Shown here one piece after another: positions 3,731 through 15,414 of a stretch of DNA of 18,993 nucleotides. A model generated the notes under the pieces. It had not been told where the DNA came from. It worked only from the letters and a program-made list of their open reading frames with translations, and made no database searches. How positions within the stretch are numbered: position 1 is the stretch's first letter; each line of letters begins with the position of its first letter. Source of the DNA: Candidatus Woesearchaeota archaeon (GTDB taxonomy: Archaea > Nanobdellota > Nanobdellia > Nanobdellales > CAZNIQ01); assembly GCA_964573185.1 (NCBI GenBank), contig CAZNIQ010000009.1, forward strand, positions 5,640 through 24,632, written 5' to 3'. The position numbers and the translations under genes are program-made.

Positions 3731-3985
3731 ATGAAGCCTAAGAGAAATGAAAGGTATTATCTTGTAGAGAAGGATGATAAACTGTACCTTTATGATTCTG
3801 AGTTTAATGAGCTAATAGAGTTAGATGAACTGTTAATGCTTGTTTGGTTACTTTCTGATGGATTGAAAACTAAAGAAGAGATTGCAAAAATATTAAAAGA
3901 AGAATTTGAGATCGAAAATTCTGAAGAAATCGTTAAAGAAGCTTTAGAAATTCTAAGAGAGAATAATTTGATAATTTTTAATTAA
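3731..3985 (+). CDS. Small PqqD-family / RiPP-recognition-element (RRE)-like protein
   Basis: 84 aa. YYLVEKDDKLYLYDSEFNELIELDELLMLVWLLSDGLKTKEEIAKILKEEFEIENSEEIVKEALEILRENNLI follows the PqqD-family pattern: beta strands, then L-N/D-x-x-a-x-x-i-W-x-l-l-d-G-x-x-T-x-e-E-I, then acidic helices and a terminal hydrophobic L-I. Lies 26 nt downstream of trm11. Confidence 0.5.
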   Translation: MKPKRNERYYLVEKDDKLYLYDSEFNELIELDELLMLVWLLSDGLKTKEEIAKILKEEFEIENSEEIVKEALEILRENNLIIFN

Positions 3986-4865: not shown

Positions 4866-5942
4866 TTAAGTCTTTTTAAGGAGTTGTTCTAAATAAACTT
4901 GCCTTTCGTAAAGCTTCTTAATCATAGATTCTAGCTGATAAATCTTCCAAGTAATATCCTTTACATCCGGCATGTTCTTTATTTTCTCTTCCAAAATCTT
5001 TATTCTTTCAAAAGCTTCAGCAACCTCATCCGCATTTAATATCTTTAATCTCATTTCTAATGCTTTTATTTTTTCCTTTAATTCTTCATTCTCCTTAGAT
5101 AATGCATAAACAATATCATATAAATCTTTTATCTCCTTAACTAACCCATCCTCTTTCAATTTCTTAATTTCTTTTTTAATCTCATCTATTTTTTTGTATA
5201 TTTCATTTTTTATCTCCCTATGTCCTTCTCTTAAAGAATCTATTAGAGTTTCAAGAATATTCAATCTTCTTTCGATATCTAGGAACCTTTCTTCAAAATC
5301 TCTTATCCTTTGATTTACAATCTCTAAATCTTTATTCTCCTCTTTTATTATAATTTTCTCTTCTCTCTTTTCGTTTAATTTTCTCTCAAGTTTTTTAACA
5401 TAGTTCTCAAACTTTTGAACATATTTTTCCAGATCTTTTACCTCTGATTTCAGTTCTTCTACTTCTCCATATAATTTTGATAGTTCAATTCCAACTTCTT
5501 TTAACTCTTTCAAATGTTCTATTTCTCTTTTTAAATTTTTTAGCTTATACAGCTCTTCTTTAATTTTATCTATTTCACTAACTTTTTCTATATTATCTTT
5601 CAATAATGTTATTTCTGATTTTAAATTATCGATTTCATCTAAGATTTTTACATAATCTTCTGTTGTTAGAACACTAGAATATTTTTCTTTTAATTGCCTT
5701 AATAATTCAGCATTTCTTTCTAAAATATAATTATGTTCTTTCTCAAGATTTTCAATTATTTTATTAAAATCTTTAAGCTCTTCTTTTAATTTTTTAATTT
5801 CTCCTTGTATTTCTTTTATTTTCTCATTGAATTCTTCTTTTGTTACAGCTTCTAATTTAAATTTGAGATTTAATTCATTAAGCTTAGATTTTAATTTTTG
5901 CTGTGCTTTTATTAAATCTTCAATTAGAGGTACAACATCCAT
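4866..5942 (-). CDS. Long K/E/L-rich coiled-coil protein, unknown function
   Basis: 358 aa, almost entirely heptad-like K/E/L/I sequence with no TM segment. Lies 15 nt upstream of rio2 and 1 nt downstream of the small coiled-coil ORF, on the same strand. Confidence 0.65.
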   Translation of the reverse strand: MDVVPLIEDLIKAQQKLKSKLNELNLKFKLEAVTKEEFNEKIKEIQGEIKKLKEELKDFNKIIENLEKEHNYILERNAELLRQLKEKYSSVLTTEDYVKILDEIDNLKSEITLLKDNIEKVSEIDKIKEELYKLKNLKREIEHLKELKEVGIELSKLYGEVEELKSEVKDLEKYVQKFENYVKKLERKLNEKREEKIIIKEENKDLEIVNQRIRDFEERFLDIERRLNILETLIDSLREGHREIKNEIYKKIDEIKKEIKKLKEDGLVKEIKDLYDIVYALSKENEELKEKIKALEMRLKILNADEVAEAFERIKILEEKIKNMPDVKDITWKIYQLESMIKKLYERQVYLEQLLKKT

Positions 5943-5943
5943 T

Positions 5944-6219
5944 TTATTTTATTTTTCTCTCAAGAAATAAAACTTTTCTTTCCAACAGATCGATTTTTTT
6001 ATAAAGGTTCTCAATAGTTAGTAATAAATCACTAATAGTTTTTTCCATATAAGTTAATCTCTCATTTATTTTTTCCACTTCATTATAACTAAAGTTTTTA
6101 TTTGATATTTTTCTTTTTCCATTTTTCACTTTCTTTAACTTTTCAAGTTCTTTTTTGTACATATCTCTTTCAGCTTTAAGCTTAAGAATAAAATTCTCAA
6201 GTTTTTCTAATATATCCAT
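5944..6219 (-). CDS. Small coiled-coil (helical hairpin) protein, unknown function
   Basis: The track ORF runs to 6336, but that start would overlap the archaellin ATG (CATG at 6334-6337) and leave no room for a promoter. M40 (MDILEKLENFILKLKAERD..) at 6219 leaves a 115-bp AT-rich divergent promoter region. Confidence 0.5.
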   Translation of the reverse strand: MDILEKLENFILKLKAERDMYKKELEKLKKVKNGKRKISNKNFSYNEVEKINERLTYMEKTISDLLLTIENLYKKIDLLERKVLFLERKIK

Positions 6220-6334
6220 AATCTTTCTACTTCTTCTCCATTTATTTTCCTTTTTTAATCTATATTGTTTAACAATAAGTTTAACGTTGATGCTTTGTAA
6301 ACCTATTTTAAGAAGCTCAAAAAGAAAGATATAC

Positions 6335-6907
6335 ATGAGGAGAGGACAGTTAGGTATTGGTGCGCTAGTATTATTTATAGCTTTTGTTTTAACGGCAGCA
6401 ATAGCAGCTTTCTTAATAACACAAACAACAGTATCTACACAGCAGAAAGCAGCTGCAGTAGCAGATCAAGCAAGAGAAAGAGCAGGTACGACATTTGAGA
6501 TAGTTAGAGTAGAAGGTATTACTAATGCTAATCAAACTGAAATAGAGAAATATATTGTATATGTAAGATTGGCACCAGGTTCTTCTCCAATAAATCTAAA
6601 CCATACAACTTTGCTATACTATACTAGGGATGGAAGGGAAGCTTTTACATATGGTGGGAATGTAACAGATGAGACAAACTTAACGAAAGTAGATCACAAG
6701 TTCTATATTTTAACAGCATATACAGCAGGTACTCCTGACAATATATTTGAAGCGGGAGAGTTCTATGCGTTAGGAATAAGAGTAAACAGAACAATAAAGC
6801 CTTCTGAATGGTGGAGAATAGTATTAGTGCCTAAAGAAGGAATGCCAGCAGAGGTTTATGGAATAGCACCTGATGTATTTACAAGCCAGGTTGTTATCTT
6901 AAGATGA
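6335..6907 (+). CDS. arlB: Archaellin (archaeal flagellin) paralog 1, 190 aa
   Basis: Class III signal peptide and N-terminal helix MRRGQLGIGALVLFIAFVLTAAIAAFLI. Then QQKAAAVADQARERAG..FEIVRVEG, VRLAPGSSPINL, and C-terminal VLVPKEGMPAEVYGIAPDVF..VVIL. Several N-x-S/T sequons. The track ORF start at 6155 is an antisense-derived extension and was rejected. Confidence 0.85.
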   Translation: MRRGQLGIGALVLFIAFVLTAAIAAFLITQTTVSTQQKAAAVADQARERAGTTFEIVRVEGITNANQTEIEKYIVYVRLAPGSSPINLNHTTLLYYTRDGREAFTYGGNVTDETNLTKVDHKFYILTAYTAGTPDNIFEAGEFYALGIRVNRTIKPSEWWRIVLVPKEGMPAEVYGIAPDVFTSQVVILR

Positions 6908-7527
6908 GGGGCTGGTTCTCCTCTATTTTTTTCTATGCATTATTTTTAACTCTAGGTTTATTCATACTTTTCTTTTTAACAGGTTATGGAGGAAGGTTTA
7001 TGGCTAAGTCTATTTTACAATATGATCAAATGCAAAAAGAGAAAAAAATACCTATGTTTAGGCTTGCAGATGTTCATATAGAGGCTTTAACAAATTATGG
7101 AGAATTGAACTTTACATTGATAAATATGGGAGACTCTATAAAAATAGAAAATTGGATGCTAGAGATACAAAAAATAGATGGTAAACTACTGTGTAGATAC
7201 ATCCTACCTCCAATCGTGACCTCTGAAGGAGGTTCTATTGAAAATATCACTTTTAATGTTTATGTAGTTAATAGAAATCTTTCTTATGAAAATATTGTTT
7301 ACTATGCGGTGCTTGGAGCTGAACAAAATGAGACATATGCTTTAGCACCAGGAGACGTAGCATTTGTAAATATAGTAATGACAGATAATTGCCCAGCCAA
7401 AATATATGATGTTGGATTAAATGTAGAAAAGATTATTGTAAGGCTCCTTATTCCCCCTTCCGGATACTCCGTTATTTTAAGGTGTAAATACGATTTATCT
7501 GAAGGAGAAGTGATATGCACGGAATAA
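6904..7527 (+). CDS. N-terminally membrane-anchored protein with predicted beta-sandwich ectodomain; possible ArlF/ArlG-like or pilin-like accessory protein
   Basis: Starts MRG followed by a 24-residue hydrophobic stretch (WFSSIFFYALFLTLGLFILFFLTG). The rest is beta-rich with an LNFTLINMGDSIKIENW-type strand motif. ATGA overlap with arlB1 and a 13-nt overlap with the next gene. The functional call is weak. Confidence 0.5.
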   Translation: MRGWFSSIFFYALFLTLGLFILFFLTGYGGRFMAKSILQYDQMQKEKKIPMFRLADVHIEALTNYGELNFTLINMGDSIKIENWMLEIQKIDGKLLCRYILPPIVTSEGGSIENITFNVYVVNRNLSYENIVYYAVLGAEQNETYALAPGDVAFVNIVMTDNCPAKIYDVGLNVEKIIVRLLIPPSGYSVILRCKYDLSEGEVICTE

Positions 7528-10500
7528 GGCCTCTATTGTTTTATTTCTTTTTACTCTTTTTACCTGTTGCTCTTTCCTGGTGGAATTACTCTTGGAAATA
7601 TAGAATTCCCATAACTATACAGGAGAATTCTGGAAATACTTTAACAGATTATCAGGTTCAATTAGTCATCGATACTGCATCTCTAATATCACAAGGGAAA
7701 TTAAGATCGGATTGTGGGGATTTAAGATTTACATATTTATATTCAAATGGAACAGAAGTTGAAATCCCTTACTGGATAGAATCAGGTTGTAACACTGCTA
7801 ATACTATTATATGGATAAAAGTTCCAGAAATTCCTGCTTCTGGAACAGCAACAGTTTATATGTATTATGGAAATCCTTCCGCAACCTCCGAGTCAAATAA
7901 ATCCCAAGTTTTTGTCCATTGGGTTGGAGACATAAATAAATACTGTTATATAACAACAACAGGCGCTCAATGTTCTGTTACATTTACTACGGCAGACTTA
8001 GGATATCCTGGATATATTTTTGTAGATGTTTATATGGATTTATTTTTAAGAGGAGATTTAGATTATGGTGGAGCTACTGCACAAGATGGAGTTTGTACGG
8101 ATTCCTATGAATGGGTTGTAATTTATAGAAATGGTATATGTGTTGGTACTTACTCTACAGGTTATCAGGATTGTACCTGGAGAAGACCAGCTAACTGGCC
8201 AAAATGGTTCTATCATGTAGATCAGGAAGCAATAGATTTAGGAATGACTGCAAACTTTGGACCGGAAGTCTCATTTAATCCAGGTGGTTGTTTTGGTTAT
8301 GGTGATGCTGATTTCCATATTTTAGAAGCTTATCTAAGAAAATACGTTTCTCCTGAACCTTCTTATACCTTAGGTCCAGAAGAATTAGTTTGTATACCTA
8401 TATTAACTTTAGAACAACCAGTAAATAATTCAGCTTTAGGATCAGATAACCTAAATATAAAAGTTTCCATTTCCCATCTAGGATATTGTTCTAAAAACTG
8501 GGAAGCCAATATAACTTTTCTTTCACCTATTTCAAAAACTTATTCTTTGACTTGTGATTCTTCTTCCTGTTATGGAACAATTGATCTAAACGAATTATTA
8601 TACAACGTGGGAATAGCTTCAGATTCCTTACCAATAGAATTTAAGGTAATAGTAAAGGATGTTAATACTGGGGCTACAAATGAAACCTATGGAATAGTTT
8701 ATGTAAGAACAAATCATAACGTTTATATAAGACAACCAACTCTTGGTTCAATAGTTTTAGGTTCAGGATTCATCATAAAAGCTCAAACCGATTCTGTTTT
8801 CAAAATAAAAGCATGTTATCCTAACTTACCACCAGGAGCAAAAGCAGAAAAAATAATAATTGACAATGAGACAAAAACATGTGAAATCTGGGTTGATCTT
8901 TCAAACTATTGTAGTACAAATATCATTTCATTTAACGTAACTATAGAAAACACTGTAGGAGTTAATTCAACTTCCTATACACAATCGCATTACATCTATG
9001 ACCCACAGATAATATTAAACATTGTCGAACCTTCAAATACGAACCTCTCGTTAAGATATCTTAAATTAAAAGTGGCTGTTAATAAATATCCCATAGCTGG
9101 AAAACTGGTTCCCACAACAAGGAAATTTAATGTTACTATTGGAGGAGTTAATTATACTTTATATGGAACGGAAGATGGGTATTTGATTTTAGAACTATAT
9201 CATAAGGGAAGTAATCCTGAATATGATATATATGGAAGAAGGATACCAAGTTTGTATGATCTTTTAGGACACTCTGATGGAAATATAACTTTAGAGATAT
9301 ATGGATTAGGAAGATGTGGCTATGCAAATGGAACTAAAATTATTGTTCATGTTCCAAAAACAATATTTGAGGTTAATTTCACTTCTCCAACTCCATCAGA
9401 CGGATCAATACTACAATATTTATTTATGGAAGTTCAAGGAAAAATTAATGAAAATATTTTAGCAGATCCGAAATGCGAATTATGGATTTCGAAGGATAAT
9501 GGATTCTCATGGATAAGATTGAAAGATTTGGATAATTGTTATGGATACATCGTAAATGATGAATTTGATTTGAATAATCTCTACTATGATGCTGTAAATG
9601 GATATTATGTATTAAAGTATAAAATAAAAATTGTTGATTTAAGATGGAATGAAACAAATGAAACTGGAGTAAGAACCATTTACATACCCTACAATGCTGA
9701 GCCAATACCTGTAGTAAATCCAAGAATGTCCTCCTATGATATCCAAGCTATATTAAATAAGGCATTGGAAAAAAGAAAACCTGCTATCTTGTTTGAATCA
9801 GGAGCATATAGAGTAAATCTGATTATTGATGCTGGTAATCAAAGTTTTAGACTTATAGGTGCAAATTCCGTCTTAGAGCCAAAAATTAGAGGATTACCTG
9901 TTATTACTGTAAAAAGTGGAAAAATATTGATAGACAGGATTCAGATTAAAAATTCAATATTTAATGTAAGAGTATTTAATGGAGAAGTAAACATAACAAA
10001 CTCTAAAATTATGGGTGGATTGTATGGAATTGAAATAATTAACGGTGTAATTAACCTTAAGAATAATGTTATTACCGGTAAAATTTCTGGAATAAAAGCA
10101 AAGTATTTGGAAGGTATTGTTGAAAATAATAAAATATATGGAAAAGTATGGGGATTGTATATCAAATCTGCTCACAACGTTGTAATAAAAAATAATAACA
10201 TAGTTAGTAGAGTGTATGGTATTAAAATTGACAGTGGTATCAACGTATTGCTATACAATAATACCATCAGAAGTGGCGTATTTGGTGTACAAATATTTGG
10301 AAGAAACGTATCTATAGATCATAACATAATTTCTGGAAAAGTATATGGGATTAGAAGTAGTGTGAGCAACATAACAAATGATATTATAATAGCACGGATT
10401 TTTGGAATTTATGTAAATGGTCCTGTAAATATTGAAAACACAACGGTGTATTCAAATATATTCGGATTTTATGGATATGGAAATATATCTAATTTAAGAA

Positions 10501-10826
10501 TCTATAACGCAAAGTTAGGTGTAAAACTAATCGAAAAAGGATATATAGATAATCTATATTTAGGAAGATCTAATTTGAACATAAACTATACGGGAAATCT
10601 CTTAGTAATGTATAGAAATCCGATAAGATCCCCAAGTGGTATGTTATTTACAGGAGGATCTGTTATGATACTTGGAAGAGGGAATTATAATATCACCTTC
10701 CTAAATGCTATACCACAATGCAAATTATACTACATTTACAAAGTGCTTGGTCTGCCAAAATTAATAGCAGAAGGTAAAAGCTTTAGTGGAAGTGGTAGTG
10801 GAATCTATGCTTTATATTGTATTTAA
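7515..10826 (+). CDS. Giant (1103 aa) secreted surface protein: signal peptide, DUF2341 (ConA/lectin-like) domain, repeated beta-sandwich modules, C-terminal parallel beta-helix (PbH1/NosD-like) repeats
   Basis: The N-terminus MHGIRPLLFYFFLLFLPVALS is hydrophobic. WKYRIPITIQE..LTDYQVQLVID..DCGDLRFTY..IPYWIES..IIWIKVPEIPASGTATVYMYYGNPSA matches the DUF2341 signature. About ten 20-23-aa repeats of the form NNxIxGxvyGIxI lie at nt 9940-10560. Many Cys residues and N-x-S/T sequons. GGAG at 7504-7507 lies upstream of the ATG. No C-terminal TM or sorting motif (ends GSGSGIYALYCI). Confidence 0.8.
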   Translation: MHGIRPLLFYFFLLFLPVALSWWNYSWKYRIPITIQENSGNTLTDYQVQLVIDTASLISQGKLRSDCGDLRFTYLYSNGTEVEIPYWIESGCNTANTIIWIKVPEIPASGTATVYMYYGNPSATSESNKSQVFVHWVGDINKYCYITTTGAQCSVTFTTADLGYPGYIFVDVYMDLFLRGDLDYGGATAQDGVCTDSYEWVVIYRNGICVGTYSTGYQDCTWRRPANWPKWFYHVDQEAIDLGMTANFGPEVSFNPGGCFGYGDADFHILEAYLRKYVSPEPSYTLGPEELVCIPILTLEQPVNNSALGSDNLNIKVSISHLGYCSKNWEANITFLSPISKTYSLTCDSSSCYGTIDLNELLYNVGIASDSLPIEFKVIVKDVNTGATNETYGIVYVRTNHNVYIRQPTLGSIVLGSGFIIKAQTDSVFKIKACYPNLPPGAKAEKIIIDNETKTCEIWVDLSNYCSTNIISFNVTIENTVGVNSTSYTQSHYIYDPQIILNIVEPSNTNLSLRYLKLKVAVNKYPIAGKLVPTTRKFNVTIGGVNYTLYGTEDGYLILELYHKGSNPEYDIYGRRIPSLYDLLGHSDGNITLEIYGLGRCGYANGTKIIVHVPKTIFEVNFTSPTPSDGSILQYLFMEVQGKINENILADPKCELWISKDNGFSWIRLKDLDNCYGYIVNDEFDLNNLYYDAVNGYYVLKYKIKIVDLRWNETNETGVRTIYIPYNAEPIPVVNPRMSSYDIQAILNKALEKRKPAILFESGAYRVNLIIDAGNQSFRLIGANSVLEPKIRGLPVITVKSGKILIDRIQIKNSIFNVRVFNGEVNITNSKIMGGLYGIEIINGVINLKNNVITGKISGIKAKYLEGIVENNKIYGKVWGLYIKSAHNVVIKNNNIVSRVYGIKIDSGINVLLYNNTIRSGVFGVQIFGRNVSIDHNIISGKVYGIRSSVSNITNDIIIARIFGIYVNGPVNIENTTVYSNIFGFYGYGNISNLRIYNAKLGVKLIEKGYIDNLYLGRSNLNINYTGNLLVMYRNPIRSPSGMLFTGGSVMILGRGNYNITFLNAIPQCKLYYIYKVLGLPKLIAEGKSFSGSGSGIYALYCI
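9940..10560 (+). repeat. Degenerate tandem coding repeats (60-66 nt period) encoding parallel beta-helix rungs
   Basis: Repeat starts read at about 9999, 10060, 10126, 10192, 10258, 10321, 10381 and 10441. They encode NSKIMGGLYGIEII, NNVITGKISGIKAK, NNKIYGKVWGLYIK, NNNIVSRVYGIKID, NNTIRSGVFGVQIF, HNIISGKVYGIRSS, DIIIARIFGIYVNG and NTTVYSNIFGFYGY. Confidence 0.6.
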
Positions 10827-10834
10827 CTTTTTTG
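10827..10834 (+). terminator. Oligo-T archaeal terminator after the giant gene
   Basis: The stop TAA at 10824-10826 is followed immediately by CTTTTTTG (T6 at 10828-10833). Confidence 0.4.
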
Positions 10835-10889
10835 ATTAACATTTTTGTTGAAAAAATCCTAAAATAGAAAGCTAAATATCATATTATTC

Positions 10890-11573
10890 ATGAGAAGAGC
10901 GCAGACAGGTGTTGGTTCTTTGCTGATCTTCTTAGCAACAATGGTAGTAGCAGTTTTAGCAGCAGTAGTATTTATTACAACAGCTAGCTCCTTGCAACAA
11001 AAGGCTTTCGCAGTAGGTTCTGAAGCAAAAGAAAGAGTAGCAGCAACAGTTGATGTAGAATCTATTACAGGATACAAAGGTGTTGGCGCTGTAAACTATG
11101 ATGGAAGAGTTGTAGATAGATATGTTGAAAATCTATCTGTTGTAATTAAATTGGCACCGGGTGCAGATCCTATAAAATTAGATGACGAAGCAACAACATT
11201 ACAAATATTAACACCCCATTGGCAAGCTTTAGCAATTAGATTAGGAGGATATGCTGTATCAAATGCTACAGGAGAAGTTTGGCCAACATTATATTATGCA
11301 GATTCAGCTTTAAACACCACACTAAAGAGTGTACAACCTGAAAGATTCTATGTATGGGTTAACCAATCTGTAAATAGAGATGGTATTTGGGAAGTATTGT
11401 CCCCTGGTGAATTATATACGTTAGTAATACCATTAAATAAGAATGCTGGACATGTAATACCAGAGGAAGAAGAAGTTACAGTAAAGTTCGTATCTAGAAC
11501 AGGAATGTCTACAATGATAAAGTTCAGAGCTCCAACGGTAATAAAGGACCCAATCGTCCCGCTATATCCTTAA
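10890..11573 (+). CDS. arlB: Archaellin paralog 2, 227 aa
   Basis: MRRAQTGVGSLLIFLATMVVAVLAAVVFI..LQQKAFAVGSEAKERVAATVDVESITG, then IKLAPGADPIKL, and C-terminal VKFVSRTGMSTMIKFRAPTV..IVPLYP. Has its own AT-rich upstream region and downstream T6 runs. Confidence 0.85.
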   Translation: MRRAQTGVGSLLIFLATMVVAVLAAVVFITTASSLQQKAFAVGSEAKERVAATVDVESITGYKGVGAVNYDGRVVDRYVENLSVVIKLAPGADPIKLDDEATTLQILTPHWQALAIRLGGYAVSNATGEVWPTLYYADSALNTTLKSVQPERFYVWVNQSVNRDGIWEVLSPGELYTLVIPLNKNAGHVIPEEEEVTVKFVSRTGMSTMIKFRAPTVIKDPIVPLYP

Positions 11574-11576
11574 ATT

Positions 11577-11611
11577 CTTTTTTAATCATTATTTTTTAAC
11601 AAAAGTTTTTT
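11577..11611 (+). terminator. Cluster of three T6 runs after arlB2
   Basis: T6 runs at 11578-11583, 11592-11597 and 11606-11611, between the arlB2 stop (11571-11573) and the arlB3 start (11636). Confidence 0.4.
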
Positions 11612-11635
11612 ATTATCGTTAAATAATTATTCTTT

Positions 11636-12478
11636 ATGAAAGCACAGTTCGGATTAACGACCCTTATTATCTTTATAGCATTGATTGCAACAGCAGCAAT
11701 AGCAGCAGGTGTTATCTTATATACAACAGGAGTTCTACAGCAAAGAGCTTTAACAGTTGGTGCAAAAGCTAGAGAAAGAGTAGCAACAGGATTGGAAGTA
11801 TTTCAAGTGAATGGATACCAATTTGACCCTAATACGCAAACATTTAATGATAAATTAGGAAAAGTAACAGTGATAGGATTATTAATGAGATTGGCACCAG
11901 GTTCTAAGCCAATAAACTTCAACGATCTTTCAGTATTATTTACAGACGAAAATGAATTTTATTCTGTAAATTTAAGGCCATTAAATAGAAATGGAAGTGT
12001 ATATCCTTTAGTAGTTATCGGAAAAATGGTTGGAGATAAAATATTAATAACAGGTTGCTTATATGATAAGGTAATATCAACATCACCAAATTGTACAATA
12101 GAAGCAAATGTGGGAGGTACGGCACAAAATTTGACACTAGGAGTAAATGTAACAGAGGCTTCCTTAGAGGATTGGATAAGATATATTTTAGCACATAAAG
12201 ATTGGATCAATCATTATTCTGGAATTGCTACTCAACTAAAAACAGCATTAGGACTTGTAGGATACAATATAAAGAATGAAAACGTATATTTAGAGGAAGG
12301 AGAAGTATATGAATTATTCATAACTTTACCGGGAGCGGAAGATCCTGCTGGAAATTCATTAGAACCAAACGAATATTATGAAATAAGAGTAGTTCCCAGA
12401 GAAGGTCAAGTAGTATACATAGAGCATACTGTTCCTTCTGTATTGCCTTATGCAAGAGTAACGTTATATCCAACTTAA
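11636..12478 (+). CDS. arlB: Archaellin paralog 3, 280 aa (largest variable middle domain)
   Basis: MKAQFGLTTLIIFIALIATAAIAAGVILYTTGVLQQRALTVGAKARERVATGLEVFQVNG, then MRLAPGSKPINF, and C-terminal IRVVPREGQVVYIEHTVPSV..VTLYPT. Confidence 0.85.
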   Translation: MKAQFGLTTLIIFIALIATAAIAAGVILYTTGVLQQRALTVGAKARERVATGLEVFQVNGYQFDPNTQTFNDKLGKVTVIGLLMRLAPGSKPINFNDLSVLFTDENEFYSVNLRPLNRNGSVYPLVVIGKMVGDKILITGCLYDKVISTSPNCTIEANVGGTAQNLTLGVNVTEASLEDWIRYILAHKDWINHYSGIATQLKTALGLVGYNIKNENVYLEEGEVYELFITLPGAEDPAGNSLEPNEYYEIRVVPREGQVVYIEHTVPSVLPYARVTLYPT

Positions 12479-12499
12479 TTTTTTAACTTTTCTTTTATC
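12479..12499 (+). terminator. Oligo-T tract after arlB3
   Basis: TTTTTTAACTTTTCTTTTA begins directly after the TAA at 12476-12478. It may also hold the tRNA-Thr promoter. Confidence 0.35.
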
Positions 12500-12512
12500 T
12501 TCATATTTAAAA

Positions 12513-12586
12513 GCCCCGGTAGCTCAGCCTGGTAGAGCGCCGGATTGGTAATCCGGAGGTCCCGGGTTCAAATCCCGGCCGGGGCT
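12513..12586 (+). tRNA. tRNA-Thr (anticodon GGU), intron-less, CCA not encoded
   Basis: Hand-folded cloverleaf. Acceptor GCCCCGG/CCGGGGC; D arm GCTC-AGCCTGGTA-GAGC. Anticodon arm CCGGA-TTGGTAA-TCCGG; variable loop AGGTC. T arm CCGGG-TTCAAAT-CCCGG; discriminator T. By hand count 50 of 74 nt are G+C. Confidence 0.95.
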
Positions 12587-12615
12587 TTCAAAAATATTTT
12601 CCTTAAAGAATTTCA

Positions 12616-14359: not shown

Positions 14360-15358
14360 ATGAATAAGGAATTACTCTCTATCATAAAAAGAATTACAAG
14401 AAATCTTTCAAAAAATATGATGCTCTATACGTTAGCGACAATTATTCTAGGAATTACTGTTGGTTATTTATATAATCCTACTTTCCTTGCCAAATTTATA
14501 CCAGTTATAGTATTCTTTATGATTTATCCTATGATGGTTAATGTTTCATTTGAAAGCCTAAGGAATGTAAGGAAATATAAAAAAGTTATTTTGCTTGCTT
14601 TGCTCTATAATTTTGTATTAGCACCTATAATCTATTATTTTCTTTGTTCTTTATTTAAAGTGACCTATGATATACAAATAGCTTTGCTTTTACTTGCCAT
14701 AGCACCTGCCTCAAGCATGGGAATAGGTTATGTTGGATTGGCTGAAGGAAATGTAGCACTGGCAAGCGTAATTGTAGCTTCTGCCTTTTTAATTTTCATT
14801 ATAGTTGCGCCATTGGTAATTCACTTTATTGTAAGTTCAAACTACATAGTACTTCCATTAGAAAAAATAATCAAAAATCTCCTCCTGGTATTAGTACTTC
14901 CCCTATTACTTGGTGTAATTACACGAGAACTTATAATAGAAAGGAGGAACATAAAGTTTAATGAAGTAAAACCGTTATTTTCGTTTATCACATTAGTATT
15001 TCTGTATATTCTTATTTTTTCAATATTTGCATTAAAAGGAAGGGCTATTCTTGAAAACCCTACTAAAATAGCTATAATAGTTCCGTTAGCAACTTTATTT
15101 TACATAATAATGTTAGCAATAGAGTATATTGTTAACAAATACATAGCAAAAATGAAATATGAAGAATTTCAGGCAGTGGTTTTTACAACCGTCAGTAAAA
15201 ATGTAGCTCTAACAATGGCACTACTAGCTTTTCTATTTGGAAAACATGGATATATTATGGCAATCTATCCAGCTATAATTTCTCTTATTCAACTAGTATT
15301 TTTAATAACATACTTACATTTTAGTTTGCAGAAAAGGCATGCCGCCGCCGGGATTTGA
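14360..15358 (+). CDS. ACR3/BASS (SBF-like) superfamily transporter
   Basis: 332 aa with about 10 TM helices. LLLLAIAPASSMGIGYVGLAEGNVALASVIVA resembles the ACR3/bile-acid:Na+ symporter core motif. The last 6 codons (HAAAGI) are read from the antisense of tRNA-Glu. Confidence 0.65.
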   Translation: MNKELLSIIKRITRNLSKNMMLYTLATIILGITVGYLYNPTFLAKFIPVIVFFMIYPMMVNVSFESLRNVRKYKKVILLALLYNFVLAPIIYYFLCSLFKVTYDIQIALLLLAIAPASSMGIGYVGLAEGNVALASVIVASAFLIFIIVAPLVIHFIVSSNYIVLPLEKIIKNLLLVLVLPLLLGVITRELIIERRNIKFNEVKPLFSFITLVFLYILIFSIFALKGRAILENPTKIAIIVPLATLFYIIMLAIEYIVNKYIAKMKYEEFQAVVFTTVSKNVALTMALLAFLFGKHGYIMAIYPAIISLIQLVFLITYLHFSLQKRHAAAGI

Positions 15359-15414
15359 ACCCGGGTCTCGGGGACGAAAACCCCGCATCCTTGACCTGGC
15401 TAGACGACGGCGGC
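15340..15414 (-). tRNA. tRNA-Glu (anticodon UUC), intron-less and unsplit, CCA not encoded
   Basis: The reverse complement folds as follows. Acceptor GCCGCCG/CGGCGGC; D arm GTCT..GGAT. Anticodon arm CGGGG-TTTTCGT-CCCCG; 4-nt variable loop AGAC. T arm CCGGG-TTCAAAT-CCCGG; discriminator A. 75 nt. Confidence 0.93.

Follow-up and report, generated by a model that had tools for sequence, protein, structure and literature searches.

A nanoarchaeal archaellin locus with a fourth archaellin-superfamily gene and a recurrent giant secreted protein

Why should a secreted protein of 1103 amino acids (aa) be encoded among the filament genes of an archaellum, and why are the motor genes of that organelle missing beside it? 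Both questions are raised by an 18,993-nucleotide (nt) stretch of contig CAZNIQ010000009.1 (positions 5,640–24,632; assembly GCA_964573185.1, Candidatus Woesearchaeota archaeon), hereafter the window, in which three archaellin genes (arlB1, arlB2 and arlB3), a gene for a 207-aa protein (the small gene) and the gene for the 1103-aa protein (the giant) lie together on the forward strand. The initial annotation proposed a filament-plus-adhesin module, or a cap, sheath or surface (S)-layer-anchoring protein associated with an archaellin. The window derives from a nanoarchaeote and holds the filament-subunit locus of an archaellum whose genes are probably split over several loci; GC content is 27–34% across the whole window, and the full-length relatives of the giant are all nanoarchaeal (NZ13-N, Nanoclepta minutus and Nanobdella aerobiophila). 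All cluster coordinates are based on a listing of open reading frames (ORFs) and direct reading of the sequence, the main ORFs were scanned against Pfam and NCBIfam, and tRNAs were predicted with ARAGORN. The explanation that we consider best overall, with a probability somewhat better than even, is an archaellin locus that also encodes a minor archaellin-like subunit and an accessory giant host-contact protein.

The archaellins and the small protein

The archaellin genes comprise arlB1 (6335–6907; 190 aa, with 5 N-glycosylation sequons), arlB2 (10890–11573; 227 aa) and arlB3 (11636–12478; 280 aa, with an enlarged outer domain), affiliating to orthogroups A, B and C, respectively. All three match the family PF01917 (Arch_flagellin) above its cut-off of 29.5 bits (E-values 8.6e-28, 2e-19 and 1.9e-22; 98.1, 70.9 and 80.7 bits), and their alignment (A3) shows the QQKA/QQRA...ARERV and RLAPGS.PI motifs as well as the C-terminal strand, so that the archaellin identity first assigned to these genes holds. 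The flagellin subfamily model PRK08541 is also matched (E-values 5e-23 to 7e-26, below its 210-bit cut-off), as is the N-terminal domain model TIGR02537 by arlB1 (23.8 bits, cut-off 20). Predicted class III signal peptides consist of a short charged leader with G or A at position −1, followed by a hydrophobic helix of approximately 20 residues or longer, namely MRRG/QLGIGALVLFIAFVL in arlB1 (N-terminus MRRG/QLGIGALV), MRRA/QTGVGSLLIFLATMVV in arlB2 (MRRA/QTGVGSLL) and MKA/QFGLTTLIIFIALIA in arlB3 (MKA/QFGLTTLI), the slash marking the predicted site. The leaders are just 3–4 residues long (MRRG, MRRA and MKA, at 6335–6346, 10890–10901 and 11636–11644). An A24 prepilin peptidase is reported for nanoarchaea neither by Makarova et al. 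nor in the N. acidilobi gene table, and the host has one.

The three orthogroups are kept across nanoarchaeal genomes in the alignment, and the paralogues (approximately 190, 227 and 280 aa), which diverged anciently, would supply the filament. ArlB1 is 42–76% identical to its nanoarchaeal orthologues, all of which are encoded directly 5' of a small gene. Orthologues of arlB2 occur in Nanoclepta and GCA_053994055 and in none of the Nanobdella, YN1 and Nanopusillus loci, and arlB3 orthologues of 281–283 aa are present in every related locus that reaches far enough, the two loci of the window's closest relative (L005 and L006) ending earlier. In Nanobdella, transcript levels of the arlB1 orthologue MJ1_0453 (its tag follows from its position next to MJ1_0452 and MJ1_0451) rank second among all genes and first among the archaellins, and free Nanobdella cells swim; archaellins of this family are therefore not relics, and the concern that they might be pseudogenised or unexpressed finds no support in this relative.

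The small gene (6904–7527) encodes a protein for which published annotations give 'uncharacterized' or 'hypothetical'. A single-sequence search recovered the protein itself and one relative, nothing more. Positional orthologues in five related loci share 22–49% identity with it and four conserved Cys, and a profile search extended the family to 18 members, all nanoarchaeal where named (MJ1_0452, YN1_0210, Nanopusillus). An exhaustive HMMER profile search of 1.84 billion representatives returned approximately 10 clusters of the family together with spurious cadherin and Calx-beta repeat proteins, and gave no link from the family to ArlF, ArlG or ArlB outside Nanoarchaeota; against PDB sequences, the profile produced chance calmodulin matches only. 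The family N-termini follow the pattern M-[KR]-[GAS]-[QWYF] plus a hydrophobic stretch (MKGQ/AF..., MRG/WF...; MRG/WFSSIFF in the window), mirroring the MRRG/Q, MRRA/Q and MKA/Q of the archaellins.

An AlphaFold2 model built from an alignment of 17 family members (A2) has a mean predicted local distance difference test (pLDDT) score of 80.8, with a helix at aa 4–45 and a beta-sandwich at aa 50–207 mostly at pLDDT ≥90. The ten best Foldseek matches in the PDB are all archaellins, from five organisms (E-values 5e-5 to 1.5e-3, probability 1.00), among them 7ofq, 9eq7, 8rh5, 5o4u and 5z1l (E-values 5e-5 to 6e-4), and are followed by ArlF (4p94, E = 1.7e-3) and ArlG (5tuh, E = 3.7e-3). Below threshold, PF01917 is matched by 8 of the 17 family members (best E = 1.3e-5), and hhalign places the family in register with nanoarchaeal archaellins from residue 1 (E = 1e-4, probability 56%). 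To judge from its sequence relatives and its predicted fold, the 207-aa protein is thus a fourth, very divergent archaellin-superfamily protein of a family found only in Nanoarchaeota, and its annotation should be changed from 'hypothetical' or 'LTD domain' to archaellin superfamily. The earlier description as membrane-anchored is incomplete, the protein being archaellin-like and having a class-III-type N-terminus.

Could this protein instead be the nanoarchaeal ArlF or ArlG stator protein that links the motor to the envelope, with the giant as its envelope-side partner? Its beta-sandwich does match both structures, with a template modelling (TM) score of 0.59 on target length for 5tuh, and a single member of the alignment (P0125, the GCA_053994055 orthologue) shows a weak match to the NCBIfam ArlF model NF052590, in register at the N-terminus (E = 0.076, 13 bits against a cut-off of 110). 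In addition, motor loci of relatives hold only one other ArlF/G-like candidate (the YN1 128-aa protein; N. acidilobi Nps_00935), the Nanobdella and YN1 annotations list only ArlBHIJ or FlaBDEHIJF, and Makarova et al. assign one FlaF and one FlaG to Nst1. However, the best structural matches are full-length archaellins, and the ArlF and ArlG (NF052591) models fall far short of their cut-offs, with no match for the window protein. ArlF and ArlG are defined as carrying an archaellin domain without a class III signal (PMC10117864), whereas this family carries a class-III-type N-terminus of the [KR][GA]/Q type, like its cognate archaellins. A minor filament subunit is favoured over ArlF/ArlG because this signal is present, because the predicted helix (approximately 42 residues) has the length seen in filament subunits, because in all eight arrangements compared its gene is linked to an archaellin gene instead of arlH (the junction with arlB1 being either an overlap of 4 nt or a gap of 1 nt) and because the motor locus has its own ArlF/G-like candidate lacking such an N-terminus. 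We therefore regard the stator reading as unlikely.

The giant and its linkage to archaellins

The giant gene (7515–10826) encodes a signal peptide (approximately aa 1–21), a DUF2341 lectin-like head (aa 66–136), a poorly modelled region (aa 122–295), tandem immunoglobulin (Ig)-like domains (approximately aa 295–735) and a predicted right-handed beta-helix (approximately aa 755–1035). Of its initial description as a DUF2341/beta-helix protein, the first part stands: DUF2341 (PF10102) is matched above the gathering score of 23.4 (aa 66–136, E = 1.1e-19, 71.1 bits). The beta-helix is indicated less firmly, by a weak NosD-type match (aa 754–938; E = 2e-4; score 20 bits, cut-off 300) and by the AlphaFold2 model, whose C-terminal third is good, with regular strands at aa 755–1035 and pLDDT 75–90. 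The Pfam Beta_helix family gave no match for the window giant, and its orthologues carry a precomputed PF13229 match. Foldseek returned tandem-Ig adhesin repeats, macroglobulin domains, the pectate lyase PelI (E = 3e-3) and the tailspike-like WceF and Pam1 (E = 1.2e-2), all with low TM-scores (very low for PelI, WceF and Pam1), and a search against PDB sequences gave no match. The giant contains 26 sequons and 20 Cys, and sequon density is 1.4–2.6 per 100 aa in the five cluster proteins compared with 0.24 in other window proteins. A class III signal in the giant was considered and ruled out, as all orthologues have Sec-type signal peptides; they have no C-terminal membrane anchor. Because it has no membrane anchor of its own, the giant would depend on another protein to remain on the cell.

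DUF2341 is not the conserved part of the protein. Giant orthologues, defined by their shared C-terminal approximately 620 aa, have a conserved core (aa 484–1103 of the window giant, 32% identical to the YN1 orthologue), and 5 of 6 terminate with G-x-G-[IV]-Y-[AG]-L-[YM] (G-x-G-I-Y-A-L-Y in the window), the end of the GCA_053994055 protein being divergent. The DUF2341 head is present in the window, GCA_054017035, GCA_053994055 and Nanoclepta orthologues, whereas the N-terminal regions of the Nanobdella and YN1 orthologues are unrelated and lack it (compared over window 7515–8400, L001 10001–11500 and L008 10719–12500). The head is also 57–70% identical to the N-termini of many otherwise unrelated archaeal surface proteins. 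DUF2341 as an archaellin-linked element was accordingly rejected, as it is not conserved among the orthologues and an Aenigmatarchaeota DUF2341 protein has no archaellin neighbour. In sequence terms, a variable N-terminus joined to a conserved C-terminal part of approximately 620 aa is the pattern that would be expected of a variable receptor-binding end on a docking or enzymatic core.

Whether archaellin, small gene and giant keep a conserved order, a check that the initial annotation proposed, was examined in related genomes, and the arrangement recurs. While the window has the order arlB1-small-giant-arlB2-arlB3, GCA_054017035, with the same flanks, has arlB1-small-giant followed by the contig end; Nanoclepta, NZ13-N and a JGI relative have arlB1-small-arlB2-giant-methyltransferase-arlB3; and Nanobdella and YN1 have arlB1-small-giant-(methyltransferase)-arlB3. 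GCA_053994055 (locus L004) has arlB2, arlB1-small, arlB3, four unrelated genes and then the giant. In six lineages, with three kinds of flanking genes, giant orthologues are thus adjacent to these archaellins or at most 4 kb from them, and giant homologues free of any conserved archaellin linkage were not the picture obtained. The order is arlB1-small-methyltransferase-arlB3, with no giant, in Nanopusillus sp. and N. acidilobi, and a Nanopusillus-type order is deduced for Nst1 from orthologue tags Nst1_396-399 in the gene table.

Junctions within the window are tight. The small gene's ATG (6904–6906) overlaps the arlB1 stop TGA (6905–6907) as ATGA, and the giant's ATG at 7515 precedes the stop TAA of the small ORF (7525–7527), giving a 13-nt overlap; a Shine-Dalgarno-like GGAG (7504–7507) lies within the small gene, 7 nt 5' of the giant's ATG. 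Upstream, the AT-rich divergent intergenic region 6220–6334 (24% GC) has a TATA-like TTTTAAG approximately 30 nt before the arlB1 ATG and presumably holds the arlB1 promoter. The spacers before arlB2 and arlB3 are 63 nt (19% GC) and 62 nt (11% GC) long. Runs of six or more T number one in 6,036 nt of cluster coding sequence versus five in 158 nt of spacer, and the first T6 of each spacer begins 1–5 nt past the stop of the giant, arlB2 and arlB3 (10828, 11578 and 12479). These are the run at 10828–10833, 2 nt past the giant's stop; the first of three at 11578–11611, between arlB2 and arlB3; and the run at 12479–12484, immediately past the arlB3 stop. The pattern fits three transcription units (arlB1-small-giant, arlB2 and arlB3), in which the run at 10828–10833 would likely be an archaeal oligo-T terminator closing the first unit, and the arlB2-arlB3 spacer would serve as a terminator plus promoter region. 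The single coding run, a T7 at 6926–6932, lies 19 nt past the arlB1 stop within the start of the small gene, where it also encodes the conserved IFF motif of the small protein; it may terminate transcription in part, so that less transcript is made of the small gene and the giant than of arlB1. Overlaps, GGAG, T-runs, AT-rich spacers and terminal tRNA-Thr all proved to lie where the initial annotation had placed them.

Several observations weigh against our preferred explanation. The window 207-aa protein has no significant Pfam or NCBIfam match and its Foldseek TM-scores are just 0.38–0.45, and, taken as a whole, the model of the giant is of low quality (pLDDT 59.8). Nanopusillus sp., N. acidilobi and, according to its gene table, Nst1 have no giant at a locus that is otherwise syntenic, and in GCA_053994055 it is parted from the archaellins by four unrelated genes. 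Nanobdella has two more pectin-lyase-like paralogues away from its archaellins, and several of the linked lineages have identical flanks and are not independent observations. Since the giant is missing from this locus in Nanopusillus and Nst1 and displaced in GCA_053994055, it is dispensable for archaellum assembly and the linkage is breakable; its genomic distribution, with a loss from the locus in one clade, marks it as accessory and not as a core component, and these loci are not compatible with an obligatory role as the cap, sheath or anchor first suggested.

The same absences and displacement speak for a different reading, in which the giant is an independent surface protein (a host-glycan lyase, an adhesin or an S-layer-associated protein) that sits in this locus through shared regulation or genomic inertia and has no tie to the archaellum. 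DUF2341 proteins of other archaea do not lie beside archaellins, only one of the three pectin-lyase-like proteins of Nanobdella is at the archaellin locus, its authors proposing host cell-wall degradation, and the small-giant overlap is unique to the window, gaps elsewhere being 49–101 nt. However, nanoarchaeal gene order is heavily scrambled, yet the giant has kept its place near arlB1 and the small gene across three flanking contexts; the window has the 13-nt reading-frame overlap, the internal GGAG and no terminator before 10828; and an anchorless giant would need a partner. We consider this independence the less probable account, though one of appreciable weight. Genes for lattice-forming S-layer proteins usually show some of the highest expression in a cell. 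As an S-layer protein in its own right the giant was rejected, since Nanobdella has other candidates (MJ1_0160, MJ1_0707) and the gene is absent from the Nanopusillus locus.

For the preferred explanation, a minor archaellin-like subunit with an accessory giant, the following sequence of events can be proposed. A single promoter in 6220–6334 would drive arlB1, the small gene and the giant, attenuation at the T7 run past arlB1 would leave the major subunit in excess, and the GGAG and the overlaps would couple translation. The small protein would enter archaellum assembly via its class-III-type N-terminus and, as a presumably low-copy minor subunit, would be held in the filament by its N-terminal helix at the tip, the base or sporadic positions. 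The giant would be exported by the Sec route, needing a partner to stay on the surface, and would act as a co-expressed accessory host-contact protein that binds or cuts glycans for host-seeking and attachment; more speculatively, the small protein may be what docks it on the archaellum or close by.

Cryo-electron tomography of Nanobdella archaella has revealed unexplained 'thorn-like densities' and a corrugated proximal segment, and such decorations and segments on nanoarchaeal archaella could be formed by any of the three classes of archaellin, by the small protein or by the giant. In its boldest form, which we find doubtful, the proposal makes the divergent fourth archaellin an adaptor that would plug the giant, via its conserved C-terminal beta-helix core, into the archaellum, either at the tip or sporadically along the filament; one organelle would then both swim and recognise or cut host glycans, the thorns would be explained, and the exchangeable N-terminal head (DUF2341 in this lineage) would set host specificity. 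If this were true, Nanopusillus, without the gene at its locus, would be a natural knock-out.

A further possibility is a non-rotating adhesive fibre assembled from ArlB1, the small protein and the giant, the other archaellins forming the swimming archaellum; such a fibre would be comparable to Iho670 or the 15-nm rough appendage of Nanobdella. Nanobdella does have two filament types, nanoarchaeal genomes encode several type IV filament (TFF) ATPases without identified pilins, and arlB2 and arlB3 are predicted to be separate transcription units. Against such a fibre, the arlB1 orthologue is the top-expressed Nanobdella archaellin, and of the two filament types the 9-nm archaellum-like one is seen more often; apart from the small gene, the loci examined in Nanobdella, YN1 and Nanopusillus encode archaellins of groups A and C only; and the three paralogues have in common an N-terminal helix and core motifs, as archaellins that co-polymerise should. 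We consider a separate fibre highly improbable.

Motor genes and neighbouring genes

The initial annotation presented the cluster as motor-less, and the absence itself is borne out: no arl motor gene in the window was detected when its main ORFs were compared with Pfam and NCBIfam, tblastn with a nanoarchaeal ArlCDE and its 128-aa neighbour gave no match there, and the cluster ends at a tRNA-Thr (GGT; 12512–12587, forward strand). An 11-kb ENA contig with the same gene order, located through GatB, extended the view by approximately 1.6 kb and added a single unannotated gene. As a special property of this module, however, it does not survive comparison. Nanoarchaeota lack a traditional arl cluster (review PMC10117864). 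The YN1 motor locus (L007) encodes an ArlCDE fusion, a 128-aa protein with a single transmembrane helix, ArlH and an apparently intein-bearing ArlI, is free of archaellin genes and adjoins genes for ribosomal proteins and tRNA synthetases; a matching motor locus exists in N. acidilobi and Nst1 (Nps_00925-00940), with archaellins apart at Nps_01995-02010; and the GI numbers given by Makarova et al. place Nst1 arlI, arlJ and archaellins far from one another. As the motor genes of relatives lie at separate, archaellin-free loci, the missing arlC–J here is the ordinary nanoarchaeal condition, and by analogy arlCDE, arlH, arlI and arlJ are expected elsewhere in the genome of the window organism.

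Two proteins of the motor loci deserve separate mention. The 128-aa protein between ArlCDE and ArlH (L007 10729–11115; N. acidilobi Nps_00935) has a beta-rich remainder after its single transmembrane helix, no family match and an N-terminus (MIRELIFLII...) without a class III site; it is likely a divergent ArlF or ArlG, in which case only one of the pair is visible there. YN1 ArlI (L007 11821–14952) is 1043 aa long and combines a T2SSE core with a weak intein-splicing match at aa 412–868, which suggests, on sequence grounds, an intein within the archaellum ATPase.

The window cluster is flanked by a RIO kinase and a coiled-coil pair upstream and by the tRNA-Thr and PsiE downstream. The coiled-coil proteins (358 aa, 4866–5942, and approximately 91 aa, 5944–6219, both on the reverse strand) are encoded divergently from arlB1, and are kept beside it only in the closest relative (L005/L006; 67% and 64% identity), not in other nanoarchaeal loci. 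A longer ORF at 5944–6336 (reverse strand, 130 aa), overlapping the arlB1 ATG, was rejected as probably over-extended; the L005 orthologue has a length of 91 aa, which makes M40 at 6219 the most likely start. A protein of approximately 80 aa with no Pfam family is encoded on the same strand just 5' of arlB1 in three relatives, Nanobdella, YN1 and Nanoclepta (L001 8282–8524, L002 7558–7800, L008 8997–9236 and L011 453–695; 39–53% identity between lineages), and no counterpart was found in the window. Farther upstream, between a THUMP methyltransferase and the RIO kinase, this reduced genome encodes an 84-aa PqqD-like protein (3731–3985, forward strand; E = 3.2e-6); PqqD-like proteins are usually peptide chaperones of pathways for ribosomally synthesised and post-translationally modified peptides. 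Downstream, a tRNA-Glu (TTC; 15340–15414, reverse strand) overlaps the last 19 nt of an SBF-family transporter ORF (14360–15358, forward strand).

Comparison with known filament systems

Among flagellated Nanoarchaeota (N. acidilobi, Nst1, Nanoclepta minutus, Nanobdella aerobiophila and YN1), the archaellin orthogroups and the arlB1-small pair are as in the window, and archaellins likewise lie apart from arlCDE-x-arlH-arlI and arlJ; the window differs from them in its flanks, its five contiguous genes and its 13-nt small-giant overlap. Published nanoarchaeal annotations make no remark on the position of the giant. Its Nanobdella counterpart MJ1_0451, an orthologue of the C-terminal core (29–30% identity over 72% of the query), is also sequon-rich, combines Ig-like folds with a parallel beta-helix and directly follows the arlB1 and small orthologues, but its N-terminal region is unrelated and has no DUF2341. 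Kato et al. (bioRxiv 10.1101/2023.10.27.564410) described MJ1_0451 as pectin-lyase-like and proposed a role in host cell-wall glycan degradation, drawing no archaellin connection. Nanoarchaeota are obligate ectosymbionts whose free cells swim to their hosts, and the locus offers two candidates for the decorations and segments on nanoarchaeal archaella, the minor archaellin-like protein and the anchorless giant, which could be studied in the cultured systems Nanobdella and YN1, with Nanopusillus as a giant-less comparison.

ArlF and ArlG (PDB 4P94 and 5TUH) resemble the small protein in having an N-terminal hydrophobic helix and an archaellin-type beta-sandwich (E approximately 1e-3), whereas the small protein has a class-III-type N-terminus, is longer (178–210 aa), has four conserved Cys and is encoded next to an archaellin instead of arlH. 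A parallel in genetic terms is provided by minor-pilin and adhesin modules of type IV pili (bacterial PilY1; the Methanococcus Epd DUF2341 proteins), in which, as in the window, a filament-subunit locus encodes a small protein with a class-III-type signal beside a large secreted adhesin-like protein with one conserved and one variable end. PilY1 has a conserved C-terminus and a variable N-terminus, and its C-terminal beta-propeller docks on minor pilins at the filament tip. The conserved C-terminal module of the giant is a predicted beta-helix and not a beta-propeller, so that likeness to PilY1 is confined to the genetic logic. In archaeal pilus loci, genes for minor pilins are accompanied by genes for large adhesin-like proteins, some of them with DUF2341, for which a role as tip adhesins has been proposed (Makarova et al. 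2016), and a screen of M. maripaludis for mutants defective in transformation yielded transposon insertions in MMJJ_08210, a DUF2341 gene of the epd locus. Unlike in these modules, the partners here are archaellins of a rotary organelle and the module is dispensable in some lineages.

In the searchable literature, the archaellum filament is described as consisting of archaellins alone, with no tip, cap or adhesin component found, unlike type IV pili. While the dispersal of nanoarchaeal arl genes is already known, a Nanoarchaeota-specific fourth archaellin-like gene and a recurrent anchorless lectin/beta-helix giant inside an archaellin locus are new, and constitute a variant of the minor-subunit and adhesin pairing of type IV filaments.

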